DNA from: Deltaproteobacteria bacterium
GTDB taxonomy: Bacteria > Desulfobacterota > Dissulfuribacteria > Dissulfuribacterales > UBA3076
NCBI GenBank assembly: GCA_030605675.1
Contig: JAUWHV010000124.1
Coordinates: 1 to 32,517, forward strand
Direction of reading: 5' to 3'
DNA: 32,517 nucleotides
The position numbers and the translations under genes are program-made. Positions 3,027 through 32,517 of the stretch are shown one piece after another (positions within the stretch are counted from its first letter, which is position 1; every line of letters starts with the position of its first letter). The notes under the pieces were generated by a model, which was given only the letters and a program-made list of their open reading frames with translations, had not been told where the DNA came from and ran no database searches.

Positions 3027-3071
3027 GTAGACTTATATCATAAACGCAAAAGCAAAATATAGTTATGATTT

Positions 3072-3276
3072 AGCATCCTTCATGGCAAGCCAAAAGTAGT
3101 TTACACTTTGTTCATCCTGTACTTTGGTAGTGAAATTTGAAATTAGAAACTTGAAATTAGAGCTGATTAATCCAGTTTTTATCCAATTTCCAATTTCCAG
3201 TTTCGGCATCCAGCATTCGATTTTATAATACACCCTTTTTGGGAATAAGTATAAACCGGCGAATGAAGGATGCCTA
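3072..3276. mobile_element. MITE-like non-coding element: inverted GCATCCTTCA boxes enclosing a GAAATT tandem-repeat hairpin
   Basis: Left box at 3072-3110, and an inverted diverged box at 3248-3276 (rc aggcatccttcattcgccggtttatactt). The repeat arms lie at 3131-3162 and 3181-3204. There is no ORF inside. Confidence 0.5.
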
Positions 3277-3352
3277 TGATTTTTTACTTTTGTTCAGTAA
3301 AATAGGGAGTACCTTGAAAATTTTAAAATAAAGAAATTTTGGAGGACACAAA

Positions 3353-4183
3353 ATGCAGAACTCTTTTTTGCAGAACACAACACATGCTTCGTGCCGGAAT
3401 TCCCCCTTGGAGAGAGAATCCATCCGACATCGATCTCGAAACGCGTATCGTGCAATAATCGTACTTTTACTTAGCCTGCTTGTCCTTGCCGGTTGCGCAA
3501 GTTACGGACATCGTGTTTCCCCTGTTCCCCTGCCTGGGGCTCAACCTGAACATGTGACGGTGGATGGGGTCGAAATGCTGGCCGTTGCGTTCCCGGATGC
3601 AAAGACCGCAGAGGATCGGTTTGGCTTTGACGTGCGAGGATCAGGGCTTTTGCCGGTCCAATTAGTCATTGATAATCAAGGTACACAGAAGGTGAGTATT
3701 AATTCCGGGCAGACATTCCTGATTGATCAAAGCGGCCAGGCCTGGCCTATTCTTTCAGCAGAGGAAGCCTATCAACGGGTGAAGGGACATGTGGAAATGG
3801 GCGAAACGGCAAAAGGCACTGTAAAACCCGCTGTTTTACTCGGGGCTGCAGGTGCCCTGGCAGGTTTTGCCGTCGGCATCCTTACAGGGGAAAATATCGG
3901 TGAAAGCGTGGGCAAAGGCGCTGTCCTTGGAGGTACGGTCGGGGCGCTGGCAGGTGGGACAGCAGCCTATGCCACTGCCCCGGAAAAAATCAGGACCGAC
4001 CTGGCACAGAGGACGCTGCGCAACCGGCCTGTCGAACCCGGACAACTGGCCCATGGATTTCTTTTCTTTCCTGGACTCAAAGAGGCCACATCTGCGCAAC
4101 AGCTCCGTTTGGCCGTTACCATCGGTGAAGAACCACACGTCCTGAATTTGCTCCTGGCAAATTCCCGTGTGCCGGAACTTTGA
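3353..4183 (+). CDS. Hypothetical lipoprotein with a glycine-zipper segment
   Basis: 276-aa ORF with a lipobox-like LLVLAGC after a hydrophobic stretch. It has a Gly/Ala-rich segment (LLGAAGALAGFAVGILTG...VLGGTVGALAGG). The exact start is uncertain. Confidence 0.6.
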   Translation: MQNSFLQNTTHASCRNSPLERESIRHRSRNAYRAIIVLLLSLLVLAGCASYGHRVSPVPLPGAQPEHVTVDGVEMLAVAFPDAKTAEDRFGFDVRGSGLLPVQLVIDNQGTQKVSINSGQTFLIDQSGQAWPILSAEEAYQRVKGHVEMGETAKGTVKPAVLLGAAGALAGFAVGILTGENIGESVGKGAVLGGTVGALAGGTAAYATAPEKIRTDLAQRTLRNRPVEPGQLAHGFLFFPGLKEATSAQQLRLAVTIGEEPHVLNLLLANSRVPEL

Positions 4184-4193
4184 GGTTTTGGGT

Positions 4194-5909
4194 ATGAATC
4201 CGACTTTAGATAAGATCATTCGTTATGGGCGAGGGGAGAAAACAGCAGACCTGTTGCTCAAGAACGGCAAGGTGGTCAATGTCTTCACCGGTGAAATACT
4301 CCGGGCCGACGTGGCCGTAGCTGAAGGAATCATCATAGGTGTTGGTGAAGGATACGAAGCAATTAAGGTCGTAGATCTTTCCGGTCAATATGTCTGCCCT
4401 GGCTTTATTGACGGCCACATTCATATCGAGAGCACAATGCTCTCACCTTATCAGTTCGCCAGAGCCGTGGTTCCCAGAGGCACGACTGCCGTTGTCTGTG
4501 ATCCCCACGAAATCGCGAATGTTCTGGGGCTTGAAGGTATTCGCTATATGCTTGAGGCCAGCGAAAAGCTGCCCCTTACAGTTTTTGTGATGGCATCTTC
4601 CTGTGTTCCTGCCACCCATCTGGAGACAGCAGGAGCAACACTCTCCGCCCAGGACCTGGCGCCTCTTTTTGACCATCCACGGGTATTAGGCCTGGCAGAG
4701 ATGATGAATTTCCCGGGCGTGCTCCACCGCCTACCGGATGTTCTGGCCAAGCTGGAAATTGCAGCTCAGCGAGGCCTGCCCATTGATGGACACTGTCCGG
4801 GGCTCACCGGCCGTGATCTACAGGCATACATAGCTTCCGGCATTAGCTCGGACCACGAATGTACCCGGCTTGAAGAGGCATTGGAAAAACTTCGCGCAGG
4901 GATGTATCTTTTTATCCGCGAGGGAACCACTGCGCACAACCTGGCTGAACTATTGCCGGTGGTTACGGCTGATAACGCCCGCCGATGTCTCCTTGTGACA
5001 GATGACAGGCATCCAAAAGATTTGATGGACCTCGGCCACATGGACTATTCTGTCCGTCTGGCAGTGCAGGAGGGATTGAATCCCGTTACTGCCATTCAGA
5101 TGGTAACCCTGAACCCGGCGGAACGATTCCGCCTTTATGACAGAGGCGCCGTGGCCCCTGGATACCGTGCCGATCTGGTGATCCTGAATGACTTGAAGGA
5201 CTTCTCTGTGGAAAAGGTCTTCAGCAGGGGTCGCCTGGTGGCTGAAAACAACATCCCTTTATTTGATGAACCGCAAAAGACATACGATATTTCCTCTTCT
5301 GTAAGTATAGTTTCAGAGGGCCTAAGCTTCGAGATCCCGGTCCAGGGAGAGCGGGTCCGCACCATCGGTGTGGTTGAAGGGCAGATCGTAACAGAGGCAT
5401 TGGAACTGCCTGTAAAACATAGAAACGGTCTTGCCGTGGCCGACGTGGATCGAGATATCCTCAAACTGGCGGTTATCGAAAGACATCACGCTACAGGCAA
5501 CATAGGTCTGGGTTTTGTTAAGGGCATAGGCCTGAAAAAGGGCGCTCTGGCCGGCACAGTAGCCCATGACTCTCACAATCTCATAGTAGTCGGCACAAAC
5601 GATGCGGACATGACTGCTGCTGCCCATGCGGTAATCAATGCAGGTGGCGGATTTGCGGCAATTGCTGACAAACAGTTGCTGGCAAGAATGTCCTTGCCGA
5701 TTGCAGGCCTCATGTCAGAGGCCCCATTTGAGATTGTGCGCAAAGAGATGGATGAACTTCTGTCAGCAGCCTCCGACCTGGGGAGTCCTTTGGAAAATCC
5801 CTTTATGACCCTGAGCTTTTTGGCCTTGCCTGTTATTCCTGCGTTGAAACTTACTGACCTCGGTCTGGTGGATGTAAATAAATTCGCATTTGTGTCGTTG
5901 TTCGTATAG
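4194..5909 (+). CDS. ade: Adenine deaminase
   Basis: About 571 aa. It carries an amidohydrolase metal motif (GFIDGHIHIESTML) and resembles Ade along its whole length. I prefer the ATG at 4194 (MNPTLDKII) to the 4167 start, which overlaps the upstream gene. Confidence 0.85.
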   Translation: MNPTLDKIIRYGRGEKTADLLLKNGKVVNVFTGEILRADVAVAEGIIIGVGEGYEAIKVVDLSGQYVCPGFIDGHIHIESTMLSPYQFARAVVPRGTTAVVCDPHEIANVLGLEGIRYMLEASEKLPLTVFVMASSCVPATHLETAGATLSAQDLAPLFDHPRVLGLAEMMNFPGVLHRLPDVLAKLEIAAQRGLPIDGHCPGLTGRDLQAYIASGISSDHECTRLEEALEKLRAGMYLFIREGTTAHNLAELLPVVTADNARRCLLVTDDRHPKDLMDLGHMDYSVRLAVQEGLNPVTAIQMVTLNPAERFRLYDRGAVAPGYRADLVILNDLKDFSVEKVFSRGRLVAENNIPLFDEPQKTYDISSSVSIVSEGLSFEIPVQGERVRTIGVVEGQIVTEALELPVKHRNGLAVADVDRDILKLAVIERHHATGNIGLGFVKGIGLKKGALAGTVAHDSHNLIVVGTNDADMTAAAHAVINAGGGFAAIADKQLLARMSLPIAGLMSEAPFEIVRKEMDELLSAASDLGSPLENPFMTLSFLALPVIPALKLTDLGLVDVNKFAFVSLFV

Positions 5910-7211: not shown

Positions 7212-7354
7212 AGGCATCCTTCATTTTGTAGTTTACACTTTTTCAACATAGACGGATACCACCATTAGCTGTTAGCTGTTAGCTATTAGGTAAAAACTTT
7301 GTATAAAAACGGACTGTTAAGCTAAAAGCTAACGGCTAAAAGCTAATAGCTAAT
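7212..7354. repeat. Conserved box plus inverted TTAGCTG / GCTAA tandem-repeat arms
   Basis: The box aggcatccttcattttgtagtttacacttttt lies at 7212-7243. The left arm (7264-7289) is attagctgttagctgttagctattag. The right arm (7318-7354) is its imperfect complement, with 22 of 26 positions pairing. Confidence 0.6.
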
Positions 7355-7383
7355 CGCACGGGTCATATTTTTTGAGGTGTGCC

Positions 7384-8244
7384 ATGAAATGTTCGTGGCT
7401 GTCGATATCAGCCGTTTTTAGAGATGGAAACGATTCAGAACCTGCACGTACGTGCCGGTACCAGCGGTTTTTGAAGTTTCATAATAAAATCGGCTTTAGT
7501 GCCTTTTTTCTTGTTTTTTCCCTCTTTTTTTATTTATCAGGTTGTGGGCATCGGCATATACCACCACCATCAACAACAAAGATACCTGTTCGGGAATTGC
7601 CTGCAACCCAGCGTCCCTACGAGGTGAATGGACACGTTTACTATCCCTTGCCGTCTGCCGAAGGTTTTGTGGAGGAAGGGTATGCATCCTGGTATGGAAA
7701 GAAATTTCATGGAAGGCCGACCGCCAGTGGTGAGCCATATGATATGTATGCTATAACTGCCGCCCATCGTACACTACCCATGAATACTTATGTAAGGGTC
7801 CTCAATCTTGAAAATGGGCGGGAAGTCGTAGCCAGAATCAGTGATCGCGGGCCTTTTGCCAAGAAGAGGATTATAGATCTCAGCTATGGAGCAGCCGGGA
7901 AGGTGGGGTTGATCGGGCCGGGGACGGCAAAGGTGAGGATAGAGGCCTTGGGAGAGGTCCGACTTGGAGTTGGAAGTCCCGCCGCATTTAAGCCACATCC
8001 TGATTTCAGAAGAGGAAAATTCTATATACAGGTAGGGGCCTTTCTGGAATCGGACAATGCCTATGCCCTGAGGCGAAAAATGATCAGATATTATAAGGAT
8101 GTGGTTGTTTCTCGCCAACCAGGAGGAGATCAGACCCTTTACAGGGTGCAGGTATTTGCATCCACTGAGTATAATACAGCCAAGAATTTTGAAGCCCGGC
8201 TTGAAAGCTCAGGTTTCCCAGAGGCCTTTATGGTTGCGAGATGA
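7384..8244 (+). CDS. rlpA: Septal-ring lytic transglycosylase RlpA family protein with a C-terminal SPOR domain
   Basis: A DPBB domain (GYASWYGKKFHGRPTASGEPYDMYAITAAHRTLPMNTYVRVLNLENGREVVARISDRGPF) is followed by a SPOR-like C-terminus (FYIQVGAF...). The lipobox YLSGC falls about 50 aa in, so the real start may be the TTG at 7471. Confidence 0.85.
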   Translation: MKCSWLSISAVFRDGNDSEPARTCRYQRFLKFHNKIGFSAFFLVFSLFFYLSGCGHRHIPPPSTTKIPVRELPATQRPYEVNGHVYYPLPSAEGFVEEGYASWYGKKFHGRPTASGEPYDMYAITAAHRTLPMNTYVRVLNLENGREVVARISDRGPFAKKRIIDLSYGAAGKVGLIGPGTAKVRIEALGEVRLGVGSPAAFKPHPDFRRGKFYIQVGAFLESDNAYALRRKMIRYYKDVVVSRQPGGDQTLYRVQVFASTEYNTAKNFEARLESSGFPEAFMVAR

Positions 8245-8305
8245 TGCGGAGAGGCCTGTATCTTGCTTGACAGGTATTTCTGTGGGCCGTAATTTAATAC
8301 TGATA

Positions 8306-8418
8306 ATTGAGGGATTGAGGGATTGAGGGATTGAATGTACTGTAATGATTATAAATTAGGAATTGCAAATTGAGAGATTGAAAATATTCATCGATTTAAA
8401 TTCCTCAATTCCTAAATC
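8306..8418. repeat. GAGGGATT x3 tandem octamers with degenerate copies and an inverted arm
   Basis: Three perfect GAGGGATT units at 8309-8332. Degenerate same-sense units follow at 8355-8386. The complementary arm aaattcctcaattcctaaatc is at 8398-8418. Confidence 0.6.
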
Positions 8419-8476
8419 TATTAGTAATAATTAAAGTATGATATTGCCGGAGGTATTATTCTTGAGGAAAAAAATT

Positions 8477-8911: not shown

Positions 8912-8915
8912 GGGA

Positions 8916-8951
8916 ATTTGGTGATTTGGTGAATGGGTGAATGGGTGAATG
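8916..8951. repeat. Tandem octamers ATTTGGTG x2 plus AATGGGTG x2.5 spanning the gspG-gspE junction
   Basis: Read directly from the sequence. Each AATGGGTG unit contains an ATG. The tract overlaps the annotated gspE start at 8933. Confidence 0.8.
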
Positions 8952-10585
8952 TCCAAAACGTAGGGTCTTTCCTGGGGTTTTTGCTCAAGAGGAAAGACAA
9001 AAACGAACTCCAAAACGCAAGTGGGGATCAGGTTTCTGAGGCCGAATCAAATTCAGCTGAGGTGCCGGGGTCTGGATTTCCCCAAATAGGCGTGGCTGAT
9101 TTTCCTGACAAGCCGCCTATGATAAATGGGCTGTCTCCGCAGCTAATGCGGCAGTGGAAGGTCGTCACATTATCTATGGATGATTCTGAAGCCAGGGTGG
9201 CTATGGCCACGCCCCAGGACCTGTACCTGAGAGAACTCCTTGAAAGTATTTATCAGAAGCCGGTTCGTCCCTTTCTTGCCAGTGAAGAGGATATCCTTGC
9301 TGCTGTTTACAGATGGTATGAGGCCGATATAGACCTGGGAGGGGAGGAGTCCGGGGACGAATCCCGTACTGTTGATGAGCTATGGGAAGATCCTGAACAA
9401 CTGCGGGATCTTGCCTCCGAGGCACCTGTGATACGTCTTGTAAACCATATTATCAGTCAGGCACTTGAGGTAAAGGCTTCAGACATACATTTTGAGCCAT
9501 TCAGGGATCACTTTAAGGTAAGGTTCCGTATAGATGGAGTCCTTCACGACATTGAGACAGTTGCAAAAAAGCTCCAACCCGCAATTACTTCCCGGCTAAA
9601 ACTGATGGCCAAGATGAACATCGCTGAGATGCGCTTGCCTCAGGATGGGCGCATTAAGGTCCGCGAGGGGCAAAGAGAGATAGACATCAGGGTCTCTTCT
9701 CTGCCGACCCTTTTTGGGGAGAGTATAGTGCTCAGGCTCCTCAACCGGGAGGAGGTCCGGCTGGAATTGGAAACTTTGGGGATTTCAGCCGACATATTGG
9801 GGGATTTTGAAAAGATAATTTCAAGGCCCTATGGGTTGATCCTGGTCACCGGTCCGACCGGCAGCGGGAAGACCACTACTCTTTATGGGGCTATGAACCG
9901 CATCAATGCCCCGGACAAGAAAATTGTAACAGTTGAAGACCCGGTTGAGTATCAGTTGGATGGGATAAACCAGATCCAGATCCGTCCTAAGATAGGGTTG
10001 GGCTTTGCCTCTGCCCTTCGCAACATCCTCAGACAGGATCCGGATGTGATACTTGTCGGAGAGATCCGGGACGCTGAGACTGCCGAGATTGCCATACAGT
10101 CCGCACTTACCGGACATCTTGTATTTTCTACCCTCCACACAAACGATGCTGCAAGCGCAATTACCAGGTTGCAGGAGATGGGCGTTGAGTCTTATCTTTT
10201 GTCCTCCTGTCTACTTGCAGTGATGGCCCAGAGGCTGGTCAGGAAGATCTGCCCGCATTGCGGGGCTGCTTACGATCTGCCGCCTGGTTTTTTCGAGGAG
10301 GTAGTCCAGGCCCTTGGGGTGGACAGCACTCAGGCTCCATCCGAGGTCTGGCGGGGTAAGGGTTGCGCTAATTGTGCCAATACAGGATTTTCCGGTCGTA
10401 CTGGTATATACGAGCTGATCCAGGTGGATGACGAAATAAGGCGACTGATAGTCAAGGGTGCTGATAGCGGCTCAATCCTTTCCAAGGCCCGATCTCTGGG
10501 CATGAGGACGCTTCGTCAAGACGGCCTTCAAAAGGTCCTTGCAGGTCAAACAACCTTTGAAGAGGTTATGAGAGTCACTAATTAG
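8933..10585 (+). CDS. gspE: Type II secretion ATPase GspE
   Basis: Walker A (GPTGSGKTTT), Asp and His boxes, and a CxxC...CxxC zinc motif (CPHC...CANC). The N-terminal domain is T2SSE-like. The start could also be the in-frame GTG at 8945. Confidence 0.9.
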   Translation: MGEWVNVQNVGSFLGFLLKRKDKNELQNASGDQVSEAESNSAEVPGSGFPQIGVADFPDKPPMINGLSPQLMRQWKVVTLSMDDSEARVAMATPQDLYLRELLESIYQKPVRPFLASEEDILAAVYRWYEADIDLGGEESGDESRTVDELWEDPEQLRDLASEAPVIRLVNHIISQALEVKASDIHFEPFRDHFKVRFRIDGVLHDIETVAKKLQPAITSRLKLMAKMNIAEMRLPQDGRIKVREGQREIDIRVSSLPTLFGESIVLRLLNREEVRLELETLGISADILGDFEKIISRPYGLILVTGPTGSGKTTTLYGAMNRINAPDKKIVTVEDPVEYQLDGINQIQIRPKIGLGFASALRNILRQDPDVILVGEIRDAETAEIAIQSALTGHLVFSTLHTNDAASAITRLQEMGVESYLLSSCLLAVMAQRLVRKICPHCGAAYDLPPGFFEEVVQALGVDSTQAPSEVWRGKGCANCANTGFSGRTGIYELIQVDDEIRRLIVKGADSGSILSKARSLGMRTLRQDGLQKVLAGQTTFEEVMRVTN

Positions 10586-10611
10586 AAGCTGAAGGCTGAA
10601 GGCTGAAGGCT
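10585..10611. repeat. GAAGGCT x3 tandem heptamers (plus one GAAGCT) between gspE and gspF
   Basis: The tract reads gaagct gaaggct gaaggct gaaggct and begins on the last base of the gspE stop codon. Confidence 0.8.
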
Positions 10612-10635: not shown

Positions 10636-11841
10636 ATGTCTACTTTTGCTTATGAGGCCCTGGATGTTAAAGGGCAAAAGATTGAAGGGACCGACGAGGC
10701 TGCAAGCCAGGATCTCTTGATTTCCATGTTAATCTCCCAGGGCCTTCAACCTGTTAAGGTTAAGAGGTTAAAGCGGTTCTATGCTTTATGGAGCAGGAAA
10801 GGGGTCAGGTTCAGCCACGATGACCTTCTCTACTTCACCAGTGAATTGGCTGATCTTCTGGAAGCCGGTGTCCACTTGGAGCGGACCCTGGTCATCCTGG
10901 AAGATGCTGCTGAGCAGAAGACAATACGTGTGCTGATTAATACCATAAGGCAGGAGATCCACGGGGGTAAAAAGCTGTCAGAGGCATTATCTTCCTATCC
11001 GGACATCTTCAATCCCCTGTACATTAATATGGTGCGCGTAGGGGAGTTGGGAGGTGTCCTCCCTGTGGTTCTCAAGAAGCTGAGTGGTTTCATCAAGCGT
11101 TCAAGAGATATTCGAAAGTTTATTATTACTTCATCAATCTATCCAAGCATCCTGGCCCTTGTGGGCATTTTATCAGTCTTTATATTGGTAACCTTTGTTG
11201 TGCCGAAGTTTGGCCAGATCTTTGAGGATCTCAATCAGCCTATGCCCCTGGCCACCAAGTGCATCGTTGGGGCCAGCATGTTTCTACAGTCATGGTGGTG
11301 GTTGTTAGGCCTGGTTATTTTTGTGCTTAGTACTGGTTTGTACTCCTATATCAAGTCACCTGAAGGGAGGGCCTGGTGGGACAAGGTGGTGCTACGTTTG
11401 CCCTTGGCCGGCTCCATGTTGCTGAAGATAGAACTCGGTCGCCTGGCCCGCACTCTGGGCACTTTGCTTGAGAGTGGTATTCCCATACTCAAGGGTATTT
11501 CTCTTTCTGGAGAAGTGGTTTCTAACAGCGTTATACGGAGTGCTGTGGATGATCTGTATAAGGGAGTCCGTCAGGGAAAGAGTCTAAGCCAACTTATGAA
11601 ACAAGCAAAGGTCTTTCCCTCACTTATGGTACACCTGGTGGCTGTTGGAGAGGAAACAGGGGCTATGGGGCCTATGCTTTTAAAGATTGCGGATGATTTT
11701 GAAGAAAAGGTCCAGCACGACACCAAGGTCTATTTATCCCTGGTGGAACCTATAACTATAGTACTGATGGGAATTATAATCGGCGGGATTATCCTGTCTA
11801 TGCTCCTTGCTATATTTGGTATTAACGATGTGGCTTTATAA
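10636..11841 (+). CDS. gspF: Type II secretion inner-membrane platform protein GspF
   Basis: 401 aa with the duplicated T2SSF domain architecture and three TM segments. It resembles GspF/PilC throughout. Confidence 0.9.
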   Translation: MSTFAYEALDVKGQKIEGTDEAASQDLLISMLISQGLQPVKVKRLKRFYALWSRKGVRFSHDDLLYFTSELADLLEAGVHLERTLVILEDAAEQKTIRVLINTIRQEIHGGKKLSEALSSYPDIFNPLYINMVRVGELGGVLPVVLKKLSGFIKRSRDIRKFIITSSIYPSILALVGILSVFILVTFVVPKFGQIFEDLNQPMPLATKCIVGASMFLQSWWWLLGLVIFVLSTGLYSYIKSPEGRAWWDKVVLRLPLAGSMLLKIELGRLARTLGTLLESGIPILKGISLSGEVVSNSVIRSAVDDLYKGVRQGKSLSQLMKQAKVFPSLMVHLVAVGEETGAMGPMLLKIADDFEEKVQHDTKVYLSLVEPITIVLMGIIIGGIILSMLLAIFGINDVAL

Positions 11842-11873
11842 AGGTGGAAGGTTAAAGGTAGAAGGTTGAAGGG
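11841..11873. repeat. GAAGGT/AAAGGT-type repeat tract at the gspF-gspH junction
   Basis: The tract reads aaggtggaaggttaaaggtagaaggttgaaggg. It overlaps the TTG start proposed for gspH. Confidence 0.6.
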
Positions 11874-12351
11874 AGCAACGCAGCCATCGGGCAAAGGATT
11901 GGGTTTTGCGAGCCGCTCAAAGGGTTTTACGCTAATTGAGCTTCTTGTAGTGCTGGTACTGATAGGCATCTTTAGTTCTCTGGTTTTTGTGTCTGTTGCC
12001 GGCGGGATACTTCGGTCTGAAGAGAGGCGTTTTGTTCATTCCTTTACTCAGACCCTGGTCCGGGCCAGGTCCGCAAGCCTGGGTAGAGGCGAGGCAGTCA
12101 GGTTTTTTATTGATGGAGAGAGCAGGACCTATTGTGTTGAAGGCCTTAAATGGCAGAATATCCCAGAGTCCATAGAGGTAGAAGGCGAGGGAGTGGGGGA
12201 AGTGGAACCAGGTGTTCATGCCGTGACCTTTTATCCTGATGGAAGTTCAAGCGGTGGGGAAATTGATCTCAGATGGGAAGGAGGTCGTCTGGACCGGATA
12301 GTGATAGACAGGTTCCTGGGGCTGATACGCATGGAGCGCATTTCATCGTGA
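11866..12351 (+). CDS. gspH: Minor pseudopilin, GspH-like
   Basis: Prepilin motif KG|FTLIELLVVLVLIG, with size and operon position as expected for GspH. The start is uncertain: TTG at 11866 or TTG at 11899. Confidence 0.65.
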   Translation: MKGATQPSGKGLGFASRSKGFTLIELLVVLVLIGIFSSLVFVSVAGGILRSEERRFVHSFTQTLVRARSASLGRGEAVRFFIDGESRTYCVEGLKWQNIPESIEVEGEGVGEVEPGVHAVTFYPDGSSSGGEIDLRWEGGRLDRIVIDRFLGLIRMERISS

Positions 12352-12773
12352 CAATCACCAAATCACCAAATCACCAAATCACCAAATTCTCCTCAGGCTT
12401 TACCCTCATAGAGGTCCTGGTTGCCACGGCAATAATGGGTATTTCGCTCGGGGTGTTGCTTTCGGGCTTTGCACAGGGCCATAGGCAGGCATTTAGGGGC
12501 GATATGGCCAGACAGGCCGCAACCATAGCAGAGTCTGTGCTTTATGGAATGGCCAATGAGCTTGAATCCTTGTCTTCAAGTGAGGAGGACGTAGAGGACC
12601 ATCCCGGGTGGAGCTATAAGGTGGAGATTCAGGACCTGGTCTTGAAGATAACGGCCCAGGACCAGGAAGAGAAAGAGATCGAGGTGCCTGAGCTGAAGGA
12701 GCTTATTCTTACTATACAACCTCCGTATAATGCTCATCCCTTTGTATTGACCAGCTGGATACCGGCAGAGTAG
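12348..12773 (+). CDS. gspI: Minor pseudopilin, GspI-like
   Basis: Prepilin motif SG|FTLIEVLVATAIMG. The GTG at 12348 overlaps the gspH stop (GTGA). The ATG at 12273 would give an implausibly long 42-aa leader that overlaps gspH. Confidence 0.6.
   Translation: MTITKSPNHQITKFSSGFTLIEVLVATAIMGISLGVLLSGFAQGHRQAFRGDMARQAATIAESVLYGMANELESLSSSEEDVEDHPGWSYKVEIQDLVLKITAQDQEEKEIEVPELKELILTIQPPYNAHPFVLTSWIPAE
12353..12387. repeat. AATCACCA x4 perfect tandem octamers inside the gspI leader-peptide codons
   Basis: Four perfect 8-nt units at 12353-12384 plus AAT. The tract is translated as ITKSPNHQITK. Confidence 0.9.
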
Positions 12774-12775
12774 AT

Positions 12776-13462
12776 ATGAGGAAAAAAACAATCACCAAAT
12801 CTTCATCAGGCTTCACACTCCTTGAACTCTTGATTTCCGTCTCTCTTATTGCTGTTTTGGTTCTTATTCTTTCCATGTCTGTTCGTACAGGACTGAGGGC
12901 CTACAGCAGGGGAAAAGAGATCAACGAAGGTTTAATAGTTGTATCCGCTATTGAAGGACTTTTGGGCAGACAGCTCAGGGCCGTGGTGAGGAAGGATGAA
13001 CCTGATCTCAAGGATTTTTCTGAGTTTCATGGGGAAGAGAACGAAGTCTCCTTTGTGACTACCCACGTGCCATTAGGCTCTCAGGCAGGTGGTCTTTTCA
13101 AGGTAGTTTATCGTTTTGATGAGAGAGGGAAAAAACTTATCTATGCTCAGAAGGTCATTACCAGGCCTGAAGATCTGAAAGAGGCTCTTCCCGACAGCAT
13201 AGACCCGGAAGATAAAGAAGACCTGATGGAACAGGGCTGGGGCCTTTCGATCGTAGATGGGATAGATTCTCTGGCCTTTACATATCAGGGTACATTGCAG
13301 AATGAATCCGCCCCTGAGGATTGGCAGGATGGCTGGGATAAAAAGGGCAAGGTGCCCGAGGCAGTGGCCATGGGCTTGGCTTTTTCCGATGATGGTGAGG
13401 AGCCTGCAGCCACCTGGCGGATTTTTTATACAGACCCTCTTGTTCTGGTAAATGCAGAGTGA
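12776..13462 (+). CDS. gspJ: Minor pseudopilin, GspJ-like
   Basis: MRKKTITKSSSG|FTLLELLISVSLIAVLVL, with size and position as expected for GspJ. Confidence 0.6.
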   Translation: MRKKTITKSSSGFTLLELLISVSLIAVLVLILSMSVRTGLRAYSRGKEINEGLIVVSAIEGLLGRQLRAVVRKDEPDLKDFSEFHGEENEVSFVTTHVPLGSQAGGLFKVVYRFDERGKKLIYAQKVITRPEDLKEALPDSIDPEDKEDLMEQGWGLSIVDGIDSLAFTYQGTLQNESAPEDWQDGWDKKGKVPEAVAMGLAFSDDGEEPAATWRIFYTDPLVLVNAE

Positions 13463-20172: not shown

Positions 20173-20403
20173 GGCTAAAGTTTGAAGTGCCTAAAGTGCC
20201 TAAAGTGAGCTAAGGTTTGAAGTGATCTAAAGTGACTAAAGTTTTGGTATACTATCTGATTAGCTCTCGGGCCAACTACCATTCAGAACTCATGAATCAA
20301 CGGCTAAGATTTTCGGTGAACCCGTGAATGGTTACTGATTTTATAATAGATGGAGCGTAGCGATTCCTTAACTTTAGGCACTTTAGCTCACTTTAGGCAC
20401 TTC
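20173..20403. repeat. Inverted arms of GCCTAAAGT-type tandem repeats enclosing a conserved box
   Basis: Left arm at 20173-20243 and right arm at 20368-20403. Positions 20184-20198 (gaagtgcctaaagtg) are the perfect complement of 20389-20403. The internal box at 20283-20335 is homologous to 25707-25781. Confidence 0.75.
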
Positions 20404-20407
20404 TCTT

Positions 20408-21508
20408 TCATCCACCTATGCTGGACATGCTACGGGTGCAAGATAGTCTTTCTTTGTCCGAAAACTTTAATCCTTTTGGCTTTTTTAATACGGCCTGAAG
20501 GAAAAAAAGGGCCAGCTCCTCTGTGTTCAGTCCCCGGCGCAATGCCTTTTTGACATCTACCTCCTCGTCAGAGAACAGGCATAATCGAAGACGTCCCTCT
20601 GCAGTGAGACGCAGGCGGTTACAACTTTCGCAGAAATGGTGGCTTAAAGCGCCGATAAATCCCACACTTCCCAGGGCCTTATCCAGCACATATTCATTTG
20701 CCGGTCCCGCACTGTGCGATTTGGGCAATGGGCGCAGCTTTCCAAATGCGTCCTCTACCTGATTTCTGATCCTATCACAACCGACAAATCTGGCCGGACT
20801 CCAAAAAATATCATGGCCGACAGGCATGAACTCTATAAAACGAACCTGCACGGGATATTTCAAACTCAGTCCTGCCAGGGCTGTTATCTCGCTGTCATTT
20901 ATGCCTTTCATGATCACTGAGTTGATTTTTATGGGGGAAAATCCTTTTTCCAGGGCCTTTTCTATGCCCCGCCACACCTGCTCAAATAGATCAAAGCCGG
21001 TAATATAGGCAAATCGTTCCGGGTTCAGGGAATCAAGGCTGATGTTAATATGCCTGATGCCTGCTTTGAAGAGGCCATCTGCATAATCTTCCAGCAGGAC
21101 TCCATTTGTGGTGATGCAGATTTCTTCAAGCCCGTCAATCTCAGTCAGTCTTTCTGCAAGGCTTATAAGGTCCCGCCGGACCAATGGTTCGCCACCTGTA
21201 AGGCGCACTTTTGTGACACCAATGGCCGCCAGGGTGCGGCAAATTTTAAGAATTTCTTCATAAGTGAGGATTGAATCATGAGGCAACCAGGAAAAGTTAA
21301 TCTGAGGCATGCAGTACTGACATCGAAGATTGCATCTGTCTGTTACTGAGAGCCTGAGATAGGTCAACCGCCTGCCGTATAGGTCAACCAGGGTATTTTT
21401 TTCTTTTTTCACCGGATCAGCCAGCTTACCATAAAAGACTTTTTTATTAGCCACAGACCCACACAGACGAAATAGAGTTTCATGTGCAGGTGCGGAGAAA
21501 TACCTCAC
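20408..21508 (-). CDS. moaA: GTP 3',8-cyclase MoaA (radical SAM)
   Basis: CNLRCQYC radical-SAM cluster motif and a C-terminal CxxCxRLRLTAEGxLxxCL motif. The GTG at 21508 gives an unusually long N-terminus, so an internal GTG (MKKEKNTLVDLYGRR) is an alternative start. Confidence 0.85.
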   Translation of the reverse strand: MRYFSAPAHETLFRLCGSVANKKVFYGKLADPVKKEKNTLVDLYGRRLTYLRLSVTDRCNLRCQYCMPQINFSWLPHDSILTYEEILKICRTLAAIGVTKVRLTGGEPLVRRDLISLAERLTEIDGLEEICITTNGVLLEDYADGLFKAGIRHINISLDSLNPERFAYITGFDLFEQVWRGIEKALEKGFSPIKINSVIMKGINDSEITALAGLSLKYPVQVRFIEFMPVGHDIFWSPARFVGCDRIRNQVEDAFGKLRPLPKSHSAGPANEYVLDKALGSVGFIGALSHHFCESCNRLRLTAEGRLRLCLFSDEEVDVKKALRRGLNTEELALFFLQAVLKKPKGLKFSDKERLSCTRSMSSIGG

Positions 21509-21629
21509 TGCAACCCACCGAACTGTGAGCGTTTACAGGGTGCTGCAGATGCGAGGCGGAGGGTACGCAGACGTACTCCCTGTACTTCAAGTGCCCGACA
21601 ACAAAGCAGATGCGGTACCATGTGAACGC
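21509..21629 (-). promoter_or_regulatory. Structured moaA leader; candidate molybdenum-cofactor riboswitch
   Basis: The minus-strand RNA has an enclosing stem (AGCGUUCACA ... UGUAAACGCU) and an internal hairpin (GGGAGUACG-UCUG-CGUACCCUCC). It also has duplicated GCAUCUGC and a CCUCCGCCUC tract. I could not score it against the Moco covariance model. Confidence 0.3.
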
Positions 21630-22892
21630 TTACTTTTTTCTTTTGATCTTGGCCCCTACTGCTGCAAGCTTCTGTTCCAGGTGTTCATATCCGCGATCCA
21701 GGTGGTAAACTCTGGATATTGTTGTAGTCCCCTTGGCTGCAAGGCCGGCCAGCACCAGAGAGGCGCTGGCCCTGAGATCAGTGGCCATTACAGGGGCGCT
21801 GTTTAATCCCTTTACACCTTTGATGATGGCGCTCCTGCCTTCAACCTTTATGTCAGCTCCAAGCCGTCTTAACTCGGCAACGTGCATAAAACGGTTTTCA
21901 AATATGGTTTCAGTGATCACACTGAGGCCGCCGGCCAGGGCCATCAGCACCATGATCTGGGCCTGTAGATCAGTCGGAAAACCGGGATATGGCAGAGTCG
22001 TAACATCCACACTATGCAGAGCGCCTTTTTTCCTGACAGAAATTCCGGTATTATCTCCTTCAATCTGAAGTCCGATGCTCCTGAGTTTGGATATTACCGC
22101 CTCCAGGTGATCTGCCAAAACGTTTTCAATTATCAGCTCTCCGCCAACTGCCCCCACAGCCATCATGTACGTGCCGGCCTCTATGCGATCCGGGATTATT
22201 TTCCAGTCAACGGGTCTTAGTTCCTTGACGCCTTCTATCTTGATGGTATTTGAACCAAGGCCCTTGATTTTTGCCCCCATTTGGTTGAGCATCTGCCCCA
22301 GGGCAATCACCTCCGGTTCCCTTGCAGCATTTCCCAGTACAGTTGTCCCCTTGGCAAGAACCGCTGCCATCATCAGGTTTTCCGTACCTGTCACAGATGG
22401 CGTGTCAAAATAGATATGCGCTCCATTCAGTCTGCCGGCCTTTGCCTCTATATAGCCCTCTTTGAGCCGGAGTTTGGCCCCCATGAGCTCAAGCCCCTTT
22501 AAGTGAAGATTTATGGGACGGGCACCGATGGCACAGCCTCCGGGAAGGGAGACACGGGCCTTTCCAATGCGGGACATAAGAGGTCCAAGCACCAGAATTG
22601 AAGCCCGCATCTTGCGTACCAGGTCGTAGGGGGCTTCGTGGTCAGAGAGTCCTGAGGAGTCTATGTTTAAGAAATCAGAGTCATTATCTGCGCTGCAATC
22701 TACCGTAACGCCCAGGTCAGTCAGGAGATCAGTAAAGGTCCTTATGTCAACCAGCCTGGGGATATTCTGCAGCCTGAAGGTGTCGCCGGTAAGGAGCGTT
22801 GCCGCAAGAATAGGCAGGGCCGCGTTTTTGGCCCCGCTAATCCTGATGGTTCCCTTGAGCGGGTGCCTGCCTTCAATGACCAGTTGATCCAT
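21630..22892 (-). CDS. murA: UDP-N-acetylglucosamine 1-carboxyvinyltransferase
   Basis: 420 aa. It starts [29 protein letters not shown], contains the active-site region [11 protein letters not shown], and resembles MurA along its whole length. Confidence 0.92.
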
Positions 22893-22903
22893 GAGGAAAC
22901 CAA

Positions 22904-22982
22904 TTAAGGTAGAAGGTAGAAGGCTGAAGGCTGAAGTATGTTAGCCTTATCACCTTCTACCTTCCACCTTCAGCCTTCTACC
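22904..22982. repeat. GAAGGY tandem-repeat hairpin between secDF and murA
   Basis: The left arm (22904-22936) is ttaaggtagaaggtagaaggctgaaggctgaag. The right arm (22951-22982) is caccttctaccttccaccttcagccttctacc. Positions 22915-22930 pair perfectly (16 bp) with 22967-22982. The right arm touches the secDF stop codon. Confidence 0.85.
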
Positions 22983-25706: not shown

Positions 25707-25781
25707 TCAGAATTCACGAATCAACGGTTCAGATTTTCAGTGAACCCTGAACCTCTGAACCTGTGAACTCTGAACGGTTAC
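25707..25781. repeat. Conserved box plus TGAACC-type tandem repeats overlapping the cbiA 3' end
   Basis: tcagaattcacgaatcaacggttcagattttcagtgaacc aligns with 20283-20322. Here it is followed by an expanded ctgaacctctgaacctgtgaactctgaac tract and then ggttac. Confidence 0.65.
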
Positions 25782-27491: not shown

Positions 27492-27523
27492 AATTTTGAA
27501 TTCTAAATTTTGAATTCTGAATT
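27492..27523. repeat. AATTTTGAATTCTR x2 tandem 14-mers
   Basis: The tract reads aattttgaattcta aattttgaattctg aatt. Confidence 0.6.
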
Positions 27524-27827: not shown

Positions 27828-28445
27828 ATGACAAACATAAAAAGGGCACTTATTAGCGTAACCGATAAGACAGGTGTGGCAGAACTGGCTAAAGAACTTG
27901 AGGATATGGGTGTAGAGATCGTATCTACCGGCGGTACGGCGCGGGTAATAAGAGAGGCGGATGTTTCTGTAAAGGATGTTTCAGATCTTACTGGTTTTCC
28001 GGAGATGATGGATGGCAGGGTGAAGACTTTACACCCTATGGTCCATGGGGGCATCCTGGCCCTTCGTGACAATGCCGGCCACATGCAACAGATGGAAGAC
28101 CATGCTATTCCACCTATTGATATGGTAGTGGTAAATCTTTATGCCTTTGAAAAGACAGTGGCCAAAGAAGGTGTGAGTTTGGCTGATGCCATTGAGAATA
28201 TTGATATTGGGGGACCAACTCTGCTTCGTTCTTCTGCGAAGAACTTCCGGTATGTGACTGTGGTTGTAGATCCATCTGATTATTCAAAGGTGCTTGGAGA
28301 AATGAAGGCCAATGACGGAGCCACTACCCTGACCACACGTTTTGAACTGGCCAGAAAGGTCTTTATTACAACAAATAAGTATGATAGGGCCATTGCCGGC
28401 TATCTGGAGGGAATCGATCCCCGGAAGGACACATATTTTATTTAG
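27828..28445 (+). CDS. Stand-alone IMP cyclohydrolase (PurH N-terminal MGS-like domain only)
   Basis: [17 protein letters not shown]...STGGTA...[14 protein letters not shown]...VVVNLY.F matches the PurH N-domain. It ends after about 205 aa with no AICAR transformylase domain downstream. The ORF-track start at 27696 overlaps the tRNA. Confidence 0.8.
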
Positions 28446-28465
28446 TGATTTGGTGATTGTCTCGC

Positions 28466-31184: not shown

Positions 31185-31459
31185 AAATATTCGGCATCCT
31201 TCATTTTGTAGGTTACACTTTTTTCAAAGGTAACTATTCAGGTTGAAGGTTGAAGGCTGAAGACTGAAGTACTTCAACCATCTCGCAATGATCGAACAGA
31301 GATGAATCCCCCAAACTAATACTGCAATCTCGTCAGCCAACTCAAATGCCCGCAGTTATGTGTGATTCACGCATGATTTGTCCCTATTGGCCTTCTACCT
31401 TCAGTCTATTCACCTGATTACAACTACTTTTGACTTGTCGTGAAGGATGCCCGATATTC
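31185..31459. mobile_element. MITE-like element: inverted GGCATCCTTCA boxes enclosing GAAGGY repeat arms, overlapping a gene 3' end
   Basis: The left end (31185-31224) includes ggcatccttcattttgtaggttacactttttt. The repeat arms lie at 31240-31279 and 31389-31407. The right end (31424-31459) is an inverted box (rc ggcatccttcacgacaagtcaaaagtag), and its 28-nt box core (31424-31451) matches 24 of 28 nt of 3072-3099. Confidence 0.55.
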
Positions 31460-32517
31460 GATAGCGATCTTAACCAGGCGGGTGGCCCATTCAGGGCGCT
31501 CAAGGGCGTGGATGTGGGTATAGGTTCCAAAGATATTTTTAAACACTATTCCTTCAAGTTGTCCGTCAAAGCCATGCCCCCTTACTACACGGCAGCTTAG
31601 TTTGCCTGATTTTTCTTTGTCCACCAGGACCGGTCTGGAGTAATGAAATTCATGGCCCCGTAATATTGTCCCTACATCATAAAAGGGATTCTGAGAGATA
31701 ACTTCAAGGGCGCTGTAACCGTGACCGACCGGCTTTTCACCAACAACAAAATCCCAACCAATGGCCCCTGCCATAGGATAGGTCCGTCCTTGCCAGACAA
31801 GTTGCCTGCCCAGATACATCAGGCCTCCGCACTCTGCATAGACAGGAAGTCCCTGATGTATAGCCTGATAGAGATCCCTTCTCATGGCTTCATTAGCTGA
31901 GAGGCGGGCAGCCTGTGTTTCAGGGAACCCCCCTCCTATATATAGTGCATCGAGTTCCGGCAATCCGCCACCTTGAAGGGAATCCAGGAATATGAGTTTT
32001 GCCCCGGCTTTCTCTAGGGCTTCAAGGTTTTCAGGGTAATAGAATTGAAAGGCCCCATCCTGGAGCACTCCTACAAGAGGCGTTTGTGACAAAGGGATTT
32101 CTTCTGCACCAGGAAATAATTCCATGGCATCCATACTGCCGAACTTCCATTCCCCGCTCTGATCAGCGATCTTTGCTAATGTATGGATATCCACTGACTC
32201 TGTCACCATCCGGCCTAGCCGGTCCAGGGCTTCGGCGGCCTGTGGGTGTTCTTCCCACGGAGTTACACCAAGATGGCGCATGGGGATAGGATCACCTTTC
32301 ATCCTTGGCAGGGCACCGAGTACGGAAATGCCTGTGTACTTTTCCACAGATTGCCTGACAATTGTTTCATGGCGCGATCCGGCTACATGGTTGAGTATCA
32401 CTCCCTCAATACGAAGTTCCGGATCAAGCCTCTGACAGCCCAGGACAAGGGCCGCGGCTGTCCTTGTCATTTTGGTGCAGTCCAAAACCAGAACAACAGG
32501 GGCATCTATCCACTTGG
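31424..32517 (-). CDS. Second cobyrinate a,c-diamide synthase-family amidotransferase (CbiA/DsrN-like), N-terminus off the window
   Basis: The reading frame stays open to the window edge (...KWIDAPVVLVLDCTKMTRTAAA...). It has a GATase domain (YAECGGLMYL, GHEFHYS). It is a paralogue of the gene at 25729-27222. Confidence 0.8.
   Translation of the reverse strand, partial: KWIDAPVVLVLDCTKMTRTAAALVLGCQRLDPELRIEGVILNHVAGSRHETIVRQSVEKYTGISVLGALPRMKGDPIPMRHLGVTPWEEHPQAAEALDRLGRMVTESVDIHTLAKIADQSGEWKFGSMDAMELFPGAEEIPLSQTPLVGVLQDGAFQFYYPENLEALEKAGAKLIFLDSLQGGGLPELDALYIGGGFPETQAARLSANEAMRRDLYQAIHQGLPVYAECGGLMYLGRQLVWQGRTYPMAGAIGWDFVVGEKPVGHGYSALEVISQNPFYDVGTILRGHEFHYSRPVLVDKEKSGKLSCRVVRGHGFDGQLEGIVFKNIFGTYTHIHALERPEWATRLVKIAIEYRASFTTSQK

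Follow-up and report, generated by a model that had tools for sequence, protein, structure and literature searches.

The window analyzed here is the whole of a 32,517-nucleotide stretch (contig JAUWHV010000124.1, positions 1 to 32,517) from a Deltaproteobacteria bacterium of the Desulfobacterota, and at positions 3072 to 3274 it contains a hairpin of short tandem repeats bracketed by conserved inverted boxes. We conclude with high confidence that this boxed hairpin is a genuine MITE (a miniature inverted-repeat transposable element), non-coding and presumably mobilized in trans by a transposase whose cuts are staggered by 8 bp; the inverted ends and the fixed 8-bp duplication of the target point to such a trans-acting enzyme. 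A MITE-like family of nonautonomous transposons had been among the readings offered by the original prediction, which was made from the letters alone, and it is supported here by terminal inverted repeats (TIRs), target site duplications (TSDs) of a fixed 8 bp, many copies dispersed over unrelated loci, and the comparison of filled with empty sites. The copies also have the size and content of MITEs (about 50 to 500 bp, non-coding), as they measure 101 to 420 bp and contain no credible open reading frame (ORF) and no Rfam family.

The 32.5-kb window holds five copies of the box, which form two complete elements (element 1, 3072-3274, 203 bp; element 3, 31193-31451, 259 bp) and one truncated element (element 2, 7213 to ~7379). 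Exact matches to GCATCCTTCA were found at 3073(+), 3264-3273(-), 7214(+), 31194(+), and 31441-31450(-). When up to one mismatch was allowed, the window gave 8 matches, while shuffled sequences gave 3.0 +/- 1.6 and none of them reached 8. We built profile hidden Markov models for two kinds of terminus, ends A and B, from 49 validated copies outside the window and searched the window with nhmmer, which recovered precisely five ends and no others: end A at 7213-7245(+), 3274-3245(-), and 31193-31225(+), and end B at 3073-3113(+) and 31451-31422(-). The box has a short form, GGCATCCTTCA-N7-GKTTAYAC, at 3274(-), 7213(+), and 31193(+), and a long form, in which 16 nt separate the same two motifs, at 3072(+) and 31451(-). 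Each of the pairs 3072...3274 and 31193...31451 combines one long and one short form, and the box at 7213 is unpaired. The boxes had initially been placed correctly to within a few bases, as nhmmer and the exact matches show, and the inverted partner of the first box had been described as a diverged copy. It is indeed inverted, but the difference is not random divergence: the two shapes are the distinct ends A and B. The features of the three elements are as follows.

3064-3071, no strand: left copy of the 8-bp TSD of element 1, TATGATTT, identical to 3275-3282
3072-3114, plus strand: end B (long-form TIR) of element 1, aGCATCCTTCATggcaagccAAAAGTAGTTTACACTTTg; nhmmer end-B E=6.9e-12
3131-3162, plus strand: left hairpin arm of the element 1 core, tandem TGAAATT-type heptamers, ~4 units; Tandem Repeats Finder (TRF) array 3131-3161
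3181-3204, plus strand: right hairpin arm of the element 1 core, TCCAATT units, complement of the left arm; TRF array 3182-3204
3242-3274, minus strand: end A (short-form TIR) of element 1, GGCATCCTTCATtcgccgGTTTAtACTTa, with GTTTACAC at offset 18; nhmmer end-A E=3.8e-08
3275-3282, no strand: right copy of the 8-bp TSD of element 1, TATGATTT
Reconstructed empty site of the element 1 insertion: would read ...AGTTATGATTTTTTAC...
7213-7245, plus strand: end A of truncated element 2, GGCATCCTTCATTTTGTAGTTTACACTTTTT; nhmmer E=7.3e-09
7246-7379, plus strand: core of element 2, TTAGCTG arrays 7265-7289 and their complement 7319-7353 (TRF), conserved tail gctaatcgcacgggtcatattttttgaggt, without end B
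31185-31192, no strand: left flank of element 3, AAATATTC, a decayed TSD with a 6/8 match to 31452-31459
31193-31225, plus strand: end A of element 3, GGCATCCTTCATTTTGTAGGTTACACTTTTTT; nhmmer E=2e-06
31236-31415, plus strand: core of element 3, GGTTGAA/GGCTGAA heptamers 31240-31269, complement ~31390-31407, spacer ~120 nt
31421-31451, minus strand: end B of element 3, GGCATCCTTCAcgacaagtcAAAAGTAGTTgtaa, 90% complementary to 3073-3101; nhmmer E=5.2e-07
31452-31459, no strand: right flank of element 3, CGATATTC, a decayed TSD

End B of element 1 starts with A instead of the G of the family consensus and has GTTTACAC at offset 27. The ORFs inside 3072-3274 are only 30 to 56 amino acids long and unsupported, and none is credible, in keeping with the first reading of this region. 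At the gathering threshold, Rfam returned only two tRNAs from the whole window and nothing inside the elements, and an E-value search of 3040-3300 gave only noise. TRF confirmed the GAAATT-, TTAGCTG-, and GAAGGY-type tandem repeats that had been seen beside the boxes, and the units it reported for the element 3 array at 31240-31269 were AGGTTGA/TGAAGAC. As DNA, the elements fold with -25.2 kcal/mol (z=-3.0) for the whole of element 1, -48 kcal/mol (z=-3.8) for element 2, and -38.2 kcal/mol (z=-4.75) for element 3. The gene neighborhood is ordinary and chromosomal (a type II secretion operon, secDF, moaA, cobQ-like genes, ribF, and a ferredoxin gene), and there is no transposase among the window genes. 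One further hairpin, at ~1695-1790, had tentatively been counted as box-associated for its possible CACGAAA repeats; no box accompanies it even at an nhmmer threshold of E<=50.

A scan of one representative genome per GTDB species (596 Gb) with the pattern GGCATCCTTCANNNNNNNGKTTAYAC, which is fixed at 18 positions, returned matches at at least 118 loci in 59 assemblies, compared with ~17 expected by chance, and the box is thus not confined to the few loci at which it had first been seen. The pair, TSD, and core statistics given below are drawn from the matches listed (at least 118 loci), and L-numbers denote fetched loci. Among the matches listed, the hosts include many Desulfobacterales and "Deltaproteobacteria" metagenome-assembled genomes (MAGs), Seep-SRB2 and EthSRB1 among them; the isolates Desulfobacter latus, Desulfonema magnum, and Desulfamplus magnetovallimortis; and Thermodesulfobacteriota, Methylococcales, Ca. 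Achromatium, Mariprofundus, Nitrosomonas, and Cocleimonas. Also among the matches listed, no cyanobacterial genome is found in the 59 assemblies, and the single Verrucomicrobiota match looks like chance. Within the same scope, which covers 59 assemblies from several phyla, the copies adjoin unrelated housekeeping genes and occur in both orientations.

In the matched loci, the box usually has a partner, ...AAAGTGTAAACTACTTTnnnnnnnnATGAAGGATGCC, 50 to 500 bp downstream. For box pairs less than 600 bp apart, the 8-bp flanks were identical at 8/8 positions in 43 of 82 cases, as they are for 3064-3071 and 3275-3282 in the window, and at 7/8 positions in 9 more; of the pairs more than 600 bp apart, none (0/62) exceeded 5/8. 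The copies validated in this way (n=50) are 101 to 420 bp long, and 46 of them follow a common rule, with GTTTACAC at about offset 18 from one end (A) and about offset 27 from the other (B). Element 1 obeys this rule; in the remaining four validated copies, the motif at one end was missed or lies at another offset. End A can be written as GGCATCCTTCAT-N6-GTTTACACTTT and end B as GGCATCCTTCAT-N15-(AAAGTA)GTTTACACTTT, and the consensus ends derived from 49 copies are GGCATCCTTCATttntcnGTTTACACTTT for A and GGCATCCTTCATannancnnaAAAgTAgTTtACACTTT for B. In their unequal, two-part build, A and B resemble the left and right termini of a parent insertion sequence (IS). The TSDs are 71% A+T and have a weakly palindromic bias (~nAWWWTTs).

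Unpaired solo ends also occur, several of them upstream of ordinary genes (7213 is one example), and many MAG contigs end 120 to 175 nt inside the element. In L051 (Desulfobacterales bacterium HSG2), at least six MITE copies lie within an 8-kb block, around genes that encode a DNA methylase and an ApaLI-like restriction enzyme; left ends at 1896, 2175, and 2302 share the right end at 2428 and the flank CAAATTTG. A copy of the GAAATT-type subfamily known from Seep-SRB2 and related Desulfobacterota MAGs, ~77% identical to that of the window, lies on L072 (JAIWFS010000180.1), a contig labeled "archaeon". Its sequence suggests that L072 is probably a mis-binned bacterial contig from a consortium of anaerobic methanotrophic archaea and sulfate-reducing bacteria (ANME/SRB), and transfer to an archaeon is a possible alternative.

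The empty site was rebuilt for each copy and then sought in all fetched DNA. At L005:5516-5628, a 113-bp element sits inside another repeat, and the sole difference from the uninterrupted repeat copies of L071, L023, and L041 is this 113-bp element together with a second GACTATTC; an insertion polymorphism, for which the original prediction had proposed to look, is thus present at this site. The repeat that served as the target is ~190 nt long and interspersed in several Desulfobacterota MAGs (L005:5416-5730, L071:5534-5730, L023:7870-8000, L041:2660-2818, L006:1-131, and L082:2425-2578). For the window itself, the closest genome among the fetched loci is L105, with 84 to 92% nucleotide identity over 3.4 to 12.8 kb. 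The truncated 7213 copy, end A included, is also found at the orthologous site in L105. No MITE lies in the 236 nt upstream of the L105 orthologue of gene 3353, and at the 3072 site this comparison is one of presence and absence only, as the intergenic DNA is too diverged for a clean empty site. L105, otherwise syntenic, lacks the adenine deaminase gene (4167..5909; window 4200-5743 versus L105 1030-1112).

The cores of the elements fall into subfamilies. Element 1 can be aligned end to end, at 75 to 80% identity, with copies at unrelated loci elsewhere, in E20 Seep-SRB2, FWG174 Seep-SRB2, Thermodesulfobacteriota MAGs, and others. The TTAGCTG-type core has relatives in L106, L012, L026, and L084, and the core of the 31193 element is similar to that of L022; taken together, the GAAATT, TTAGCTG, and GAAGGY subfamilies recur at unrelated loci and in other genomes with 75 to 92% identity. 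Copies within a subfamily differ by whole 7-nt units (in the left arm of element 1, which is kept across its subfamily, the indels are whole units), and in the GAAATT subfamily copy at L092:4969-5185 the central hairpin loop is inverted relative to nine other copies. These differences indicate that slippage and hairpin recombination alter inherited cores, without rebuilding them in each copy. The earlier idea of a core regenerated by slippage is therefore not borne out: core types are inherited as subfamilies, and slippage changes the number of units. A full version of element 2 exists in L106, with a normal end B after ...tcatattttttgaggt, and an alignment of L105, L106, and L012 shows that in the window and in L105 an RlpA-like gene starts where L106 has end B.

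Folds with z<-2 (median -3.7) are found in 66% of the cores across the family. Three or more tandem units are present in only 13 of 47 cores; others hold palindromes like the repetitive extragenic palindromes (REPs), and the smallest copies (101 to 113 bp) hold almost nothing and have cores without a significant fold. The tandem-repeat hairpin is therefore a trait of some subfamilies and not of the whole family.

In the mechanism that we propose, a non-coding element of 100 to 420 bp, bounded by the similar but unequal inverted ends A and B, would be bound at both ends by a transposase encoded elsewhere. This enzyme would cut the element out or copy it, leading to insertion in AT-rich, weakly palindromic 8-bp targets (~nAWWWTTs), and repair of the 8-bp staggered cut would leave an 8-bp direct repeat on either side. 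The core would be cargo, and subfamilies would differ in the hairpin-forming sequence that they carry: hairpins armed with arrays of 7-nt units here and in the Desulfobacterota assemblies with the same subfamilies, REP-like palindromes elsewhere, and almost nothing in the smallest copies. Array length would drift through replication slippage, and the cores themselves may have originated by capture or insertion of host repeats. Staggered cuts of 8 bp are a hallmark of DDE enzymes, for example those of the ISL3, IS1595, IS256, and IS6 families, and a DDE-type cut would account for the duplications seen here. In the ISfinder classification, 8-bp duplications and GG(C) termini are found in the ISL3, IS1595, IS256, IS6, and ISH6 families; our family resembles them in its AT-rich 8-bp TSD and in ends that start with GGC. 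The length of the TSD fits several of these IS families and discriminates none.

Several points weigh against this reading. Neither ~0.9 Mb of fetched loci nor PLSDB or IMG/VR yielded an autonomous partner with these ends and a transposase, and we infer the family and chemistry of the transposase from the length of the TSD alone. The apparently extreme conservation of the ends is partly a product of a search pattern with 18 fixed positions. In the window, the element at 31193-31451 has a TSD matching at 6/8 positions and the element at 7213 is without end B, so two of the three window copies are old or damaged. The search for a transposase with matching TIRs, a check already proposed along with the first reading, thus yielded none in the databases and loci covered. 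All-versus-all clustering of 558 ORFs from the fetched loci gave no recurrent transposase except a Y1_Tnp family at three loci. A generic search of the fetched loci for TIRs with a perfect 8-bp TSD at 0.6 to 4 kb returned nothing, and A/B end pairs 0.6 to 5 kb apart in these loci were neighboring MITEs only, with no matching flanks and no enclosed transposase. The ORFs beside unpaired ends were housekeeping genes. Searching PLSDB with a 105-nt copy gave only one further MITE, on a plasmid of Desulfosarcina BuS5 whose IS4, IS3, and Tn3 transposases are without these ends, and the pattern scan of IMG/VR gave no matches. A possible long IS in Methylococcales, suggested by an identical sequence after end A and by contigs breaking inside it, was rejected: it is a non-coding repeat of ~270 bp with end A only, and a metagenome scan and a 45-amino-acid ORF fragment led only to fragments of 45 to 78 amino acids that diverge after the repeat. 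This repeat is multicopy in Methylococcales MAGs, where contigs regularly break inside it; it has a normal end A, ...CTGCATGCCCTATTAA as its other terminus, and no end B. Its sites are as follows.

L127:1228-1488 and L128:1030-1290: Methylococcales repeat
L013, L028, L047, L050, L060, L109, and L110: further loci with the Methylococcales repeat

We weighed three other explanations against a MITE moved in trans. One is that a full-length IS is still the main active form and that the family consists of its scattered solo ends and of remnants with internal deletions. Solo ends do exist, at 7213 and at several other loci, and the many MAG contigs that break 120 to 175 nt inside the element behave as contigs do at a long repeat. 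Short multicopy repeats break contigs too, however; the TSD-validated copies are all 101 to 420 bp, no pair of ends 0.6 to 5 kb apart in the fetched loci has matching flanks or encloses a transposase, and the sole lead to a long repeat, that in Methylococcales, turned out to be another non-coding repeat of ~270 bp. We therefore regard this explanation as extremely unlikely. A conserved cis-regulatory or structured-RNA element (a promoter or operator, leader, small RNA, or terminator), inherited vertically with its stem under selection, would account for the intergenic position of the elements, for folds better than those of shuffled sequences (z=-3.0 to -4.75), and for the retention of the 7213 copy at the orthologous site in L105, with GAGG 5 to 6 nt before an ATG. 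It is hard to reconcile with the unrelated neighboring genes, in both orientations and in assemblies of several phyla, and with TSDs and filled and empty sites, which show insertion. Promoter and terminator scans stayed at background, and there was no Rfam match; a sigma-54 or sigma-70 promoter within the box was likewise rejected on its unfit spacing and on scans at background. The probability of this explanation is very low in our judgment, and a structured RNA is not needed to explain the spread of the family.

The third explanation is an element of the type formed by REPs and bacterial interspersed mosaic elements (BIMEs), or a palindrome-associated transposable element (PATE) of the IS200/IS605 type, which a Y1 (HUH) transposase, for example a REP-associated tyrosine transposase (RAYT), would recognize by its hairpin core and move in single-stranded form. 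REP heads have the sequence GT[AG]G, and end B contains GTAG; 66% of the cores form hairpins (z<-2), and some hold REP-like palindromes. In addition, ORFs of 329 amino acids with Y1_Tnp (PF01797) and helix-turn-helix (HTH) domains lie 0.1 to 4 kb from copies in three loci of distant taxa:

L029:4052-5038: IS200-like Y1 transposase and HTH ORF
L035:2-649: IS200-like Y1 transposase and HTH ORF
L043:3359-4345: IS200-like Y1 transposase and HTH ORF

These ORFs are probably genes of the RAYT type, connected with the REP-like palindromes of some cores. Y1 transposition gives no target duplication and needs no TIRs, whereas here the TSD matches at 7/8 or more positions in 52 of 82 pairs; the termini are conserved while the hairpin differs wholly between subfamilies, and the smallest copies (101 to 113 bp) have no significant core fold. 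REPs and BIMEs have a conserved palindrome of 20 to 40 nt and neither TIRs nor TSDs, but the conserved unit of our family is the pair of termini, which bears out the initial view that the layout is not that of a REP or BIME. PATEs derived from IS200/IS605 have no TSD, subterminal hairpins of conserved sequence, and insertion sites 3' of a fixed tetra- or pentanucleotide, in contrast to the 8-bp TSD and variable targets found here. Movement by a Y1 enzyme thus appears most improbable.

The MITE reading can be set beside systems already described. Type II prokaryotic MITEs, in which sequence conservation is confined to the TIRs, resemble our family in being shorter than 500 bp and non-coding, in their TIRs, direct repeats, AT-rich intergenic targets, and stable stem-loops, and in having copies of variable size and decayed copies without direct repeats or TIRs (PMC10969869). 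Our family differs in its long (~30 and ~40 nt), two-part, unequal ends with a 9-nt difference in spacer, in having the same ends across several phyla, and in that its parent IS was not found. Chunjie, a MITE found in Geobacter uraniireducens Rf4 (178 to 235 bp, 21-bp TIRs, 9-bp direct repeats), is likewise of a deltaproteobacterial lineage, AT-rich, and intergenic, with very stable hairpins and sometimes overlapping gene ends (PMC3184786, PMC10969869); going by these descriptions, the 8-bp TSDs and 30/40-nt ends of our family set it apart. Nezha and other cyanobacterial MITEs share TIRs and direct repeats, filled and empty sites, and evidence of transfer between distant taxa, but the TIRs of Nezha are common to a known IS, ISNpu3 (PMC3184786), whereas no IS partner was found for our family. 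REPs and BIMEs with their RAYTs are also intergenic, palindromic, and multicopy, and some of our cores hold REP-like palindromes; REPs differ in their length of 20 to 40 nt, in lacking an architecture of TIRs plus TSDs, and in their Y1 enzymes, which act without target duplication.

The short tandemly repeated repetitive (STRR) sequences of filamentous cyanobacteria had been named as the nearest analogue. Together with the TAACTGA repeats of marine Beggiatoaceae, they resemble the cores in consisting of two to six tandem 7-nt units, intergenic and often upstream of start codons, and nearly all TAACTGA sets are direct repeats (PMC4679880). The window units are instead many and unrelated, usually form pairs of complementary arrays that make a hairpin, and in some cases lie inside a transposon. 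Intergenic tandem 7-nt arrays occur in the cores at 3131, 3182, 7265, 7319, and 31240 and at many sites without a box. The STRR analogy is therefore apt for the tandem arrays; it does not define the MITE, as arrays occur window-wide without boxes and only 13 of 47 cores hold at least three units. Cyanobacterial STRR consensus units include CCCCAGT and others, and the units found in the window by TRF differ from them. We found no paper with these end sequences or with MITEs in these taxa in a literature search of incomplete coverage, and the family, which is real and mobile, is provisionally undescribed. More unusual is that it extends over several phyla, that its two ends differ, and that its hairpin cores are host-specific; otherwise, it is an ordinary MITE.

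Heptamer arrays are not restricted to the elements. TRF detected ~15 arrays of 7- to 9-nt units in the intergenic DNA of the window, a very high density, with many unlike units (TGAAATT, TTAGCTG, AGGTTGA, ATTGAGGG, AATCACCA, GCTGAAG, and others), at the following sites in addition to those above.

1700-1728, 8306-8334, 8397-8417, 8920-8951, 10588-10611, 11839-11872, 12353-12387: tandem arrays
20174-20242, 20371-20402, 22906-22988, 25741-25775, 27492-27523, 28440-28458: tandem arrays, continued

Some arrays occupy the spacers that separate type II secretion genes, or they overlap with start codons. Complementary pairs without a nearby box lie at 1695-1790, 8306-8420, 20174-20402, and 22906-22983; a weak resemblance to degenerate boxes was seen by eye near 1610 and 1850, where nhmmer finds nothing. 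The arms at 20174-20402, which are without ends in the window, are identical in sequence to those of a TSD-flanked MITE in L100, and the box-less array at 22903-22951 shares 80% identity with the array of the 31193 element. At 8299-8421, a 123-nt palindromic ATTGAGGG/CCTCAAT hairpin is an insertion absent from L105 (~3536-3548). It has neither an 8-bp duplication nor a box, and this hairpin was therefore gained or removed by something other than the MITE transposase. Between gspF and the gene that follows it, the spacer (11842-11872) is a 28-nt GAAGG-rich heptamer array in the window and an unrelated 110-nt sequence in L105 (6934-7045), so that this spacer was replaced outright. We also observed that GGTGATTT/GGTGAATG arrays and AATCACCA arrays 3.4 kb apart are 88% complementary over 40 nt (8914-8953 and 12350-12389; also 12790-12805 and 28440-28459). 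Between them lie gspE, gspF, and a pseudopilin gene, and it is conceivable that they pair at long range in the operon transcript.

The simplest reading of these arrays would be that this lineage generates and turns over intergenic hairpins everywhere and that some of them entered MITE cores and then spread with them; the cores appear to carry a type of repeat that the host genome makes anyway. A broader proposal, which we consider rather unlikely, is that the family is a cross-phylum "hairpin carrier", whose transposase would read only the 30/40-nt ends and whose core would be a sink for hairpin-forming host repeats that then spread, and that the box-less heptamer hairpins are an undescribed class of insertion-polymorphic elements without TSDs and TIRs. 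If so, the host repeat would be a heptamer-array hairpin here and in related Desulfobacterota and a REP-like palindrome elsewhere, and the box-less class, with 8299-8421 as an example, would be comparable to the cyanobacterial STRR and Beggiatoaceae TAACTGA repeats.

Two copies in the window affect the end or the leader of a gene. The last nine codons and the stop codon of a CobQ-like ORF (31424..32485, minus strand) are supplied by end B of element 3 (31424-31451), and in the rebuilt empty site this ORF would have a different tail of 19 residues. At the other locus, the RlpA-like (DPBB+SPOR) gene starts with the ATG at 7385, and GAGGT at ~7375-7379 precedes this codon by 5 to 6 nt. The GAGG (region 7370-7387) lies in the conserved tail of the core, and the same sequence is present in the complete L106 copy; the ribosome-binding site of this gene may therefore be MITE-derived. 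Individual copies may thus have been co-opted locally.

Elsewhere in the window, a 125-nt intergenic stretch (21507-21633) just upstream of a moaA-like gene on the minus strand is 86 to 94% identical in L019, L112, and L053, which are Seep-SRB2 and Thermodesulfobacteriaceae MAGs, and is far more conserved than the neighboring DNA. It has no Rfam match at E<=1, and it may be a variant of the molybdenum cofactor (Moco)-type leader or riboswitch or another mobile repeat.

The element accounts for a conspicuous repeat at which genome assemblies from metagenomes break in Seep-SRB2, Desulfobacterales, Methylococcales, Achromatium, and Mariprofundus, and the precise model of its ends, together with the TSD rule, allows it to be annotated. 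Its copies alter the ends and leaders of genes, as at the C terminus of the CobQ-like protein and possibly in the Shine-Dalgarno region of the RlpA-like gene. With Desulfobacter latus, Desulfonema magnum, Desulfamplus magnetovallimortis, and Desulfosarcina BuS5 as cultured hosts, its mobility and its transposase are open to study. More broadly, the element marks recent exchange of DNA among sediment bacteria of different phyla, including the syntrophic partners of methane-oxidizing archaea.

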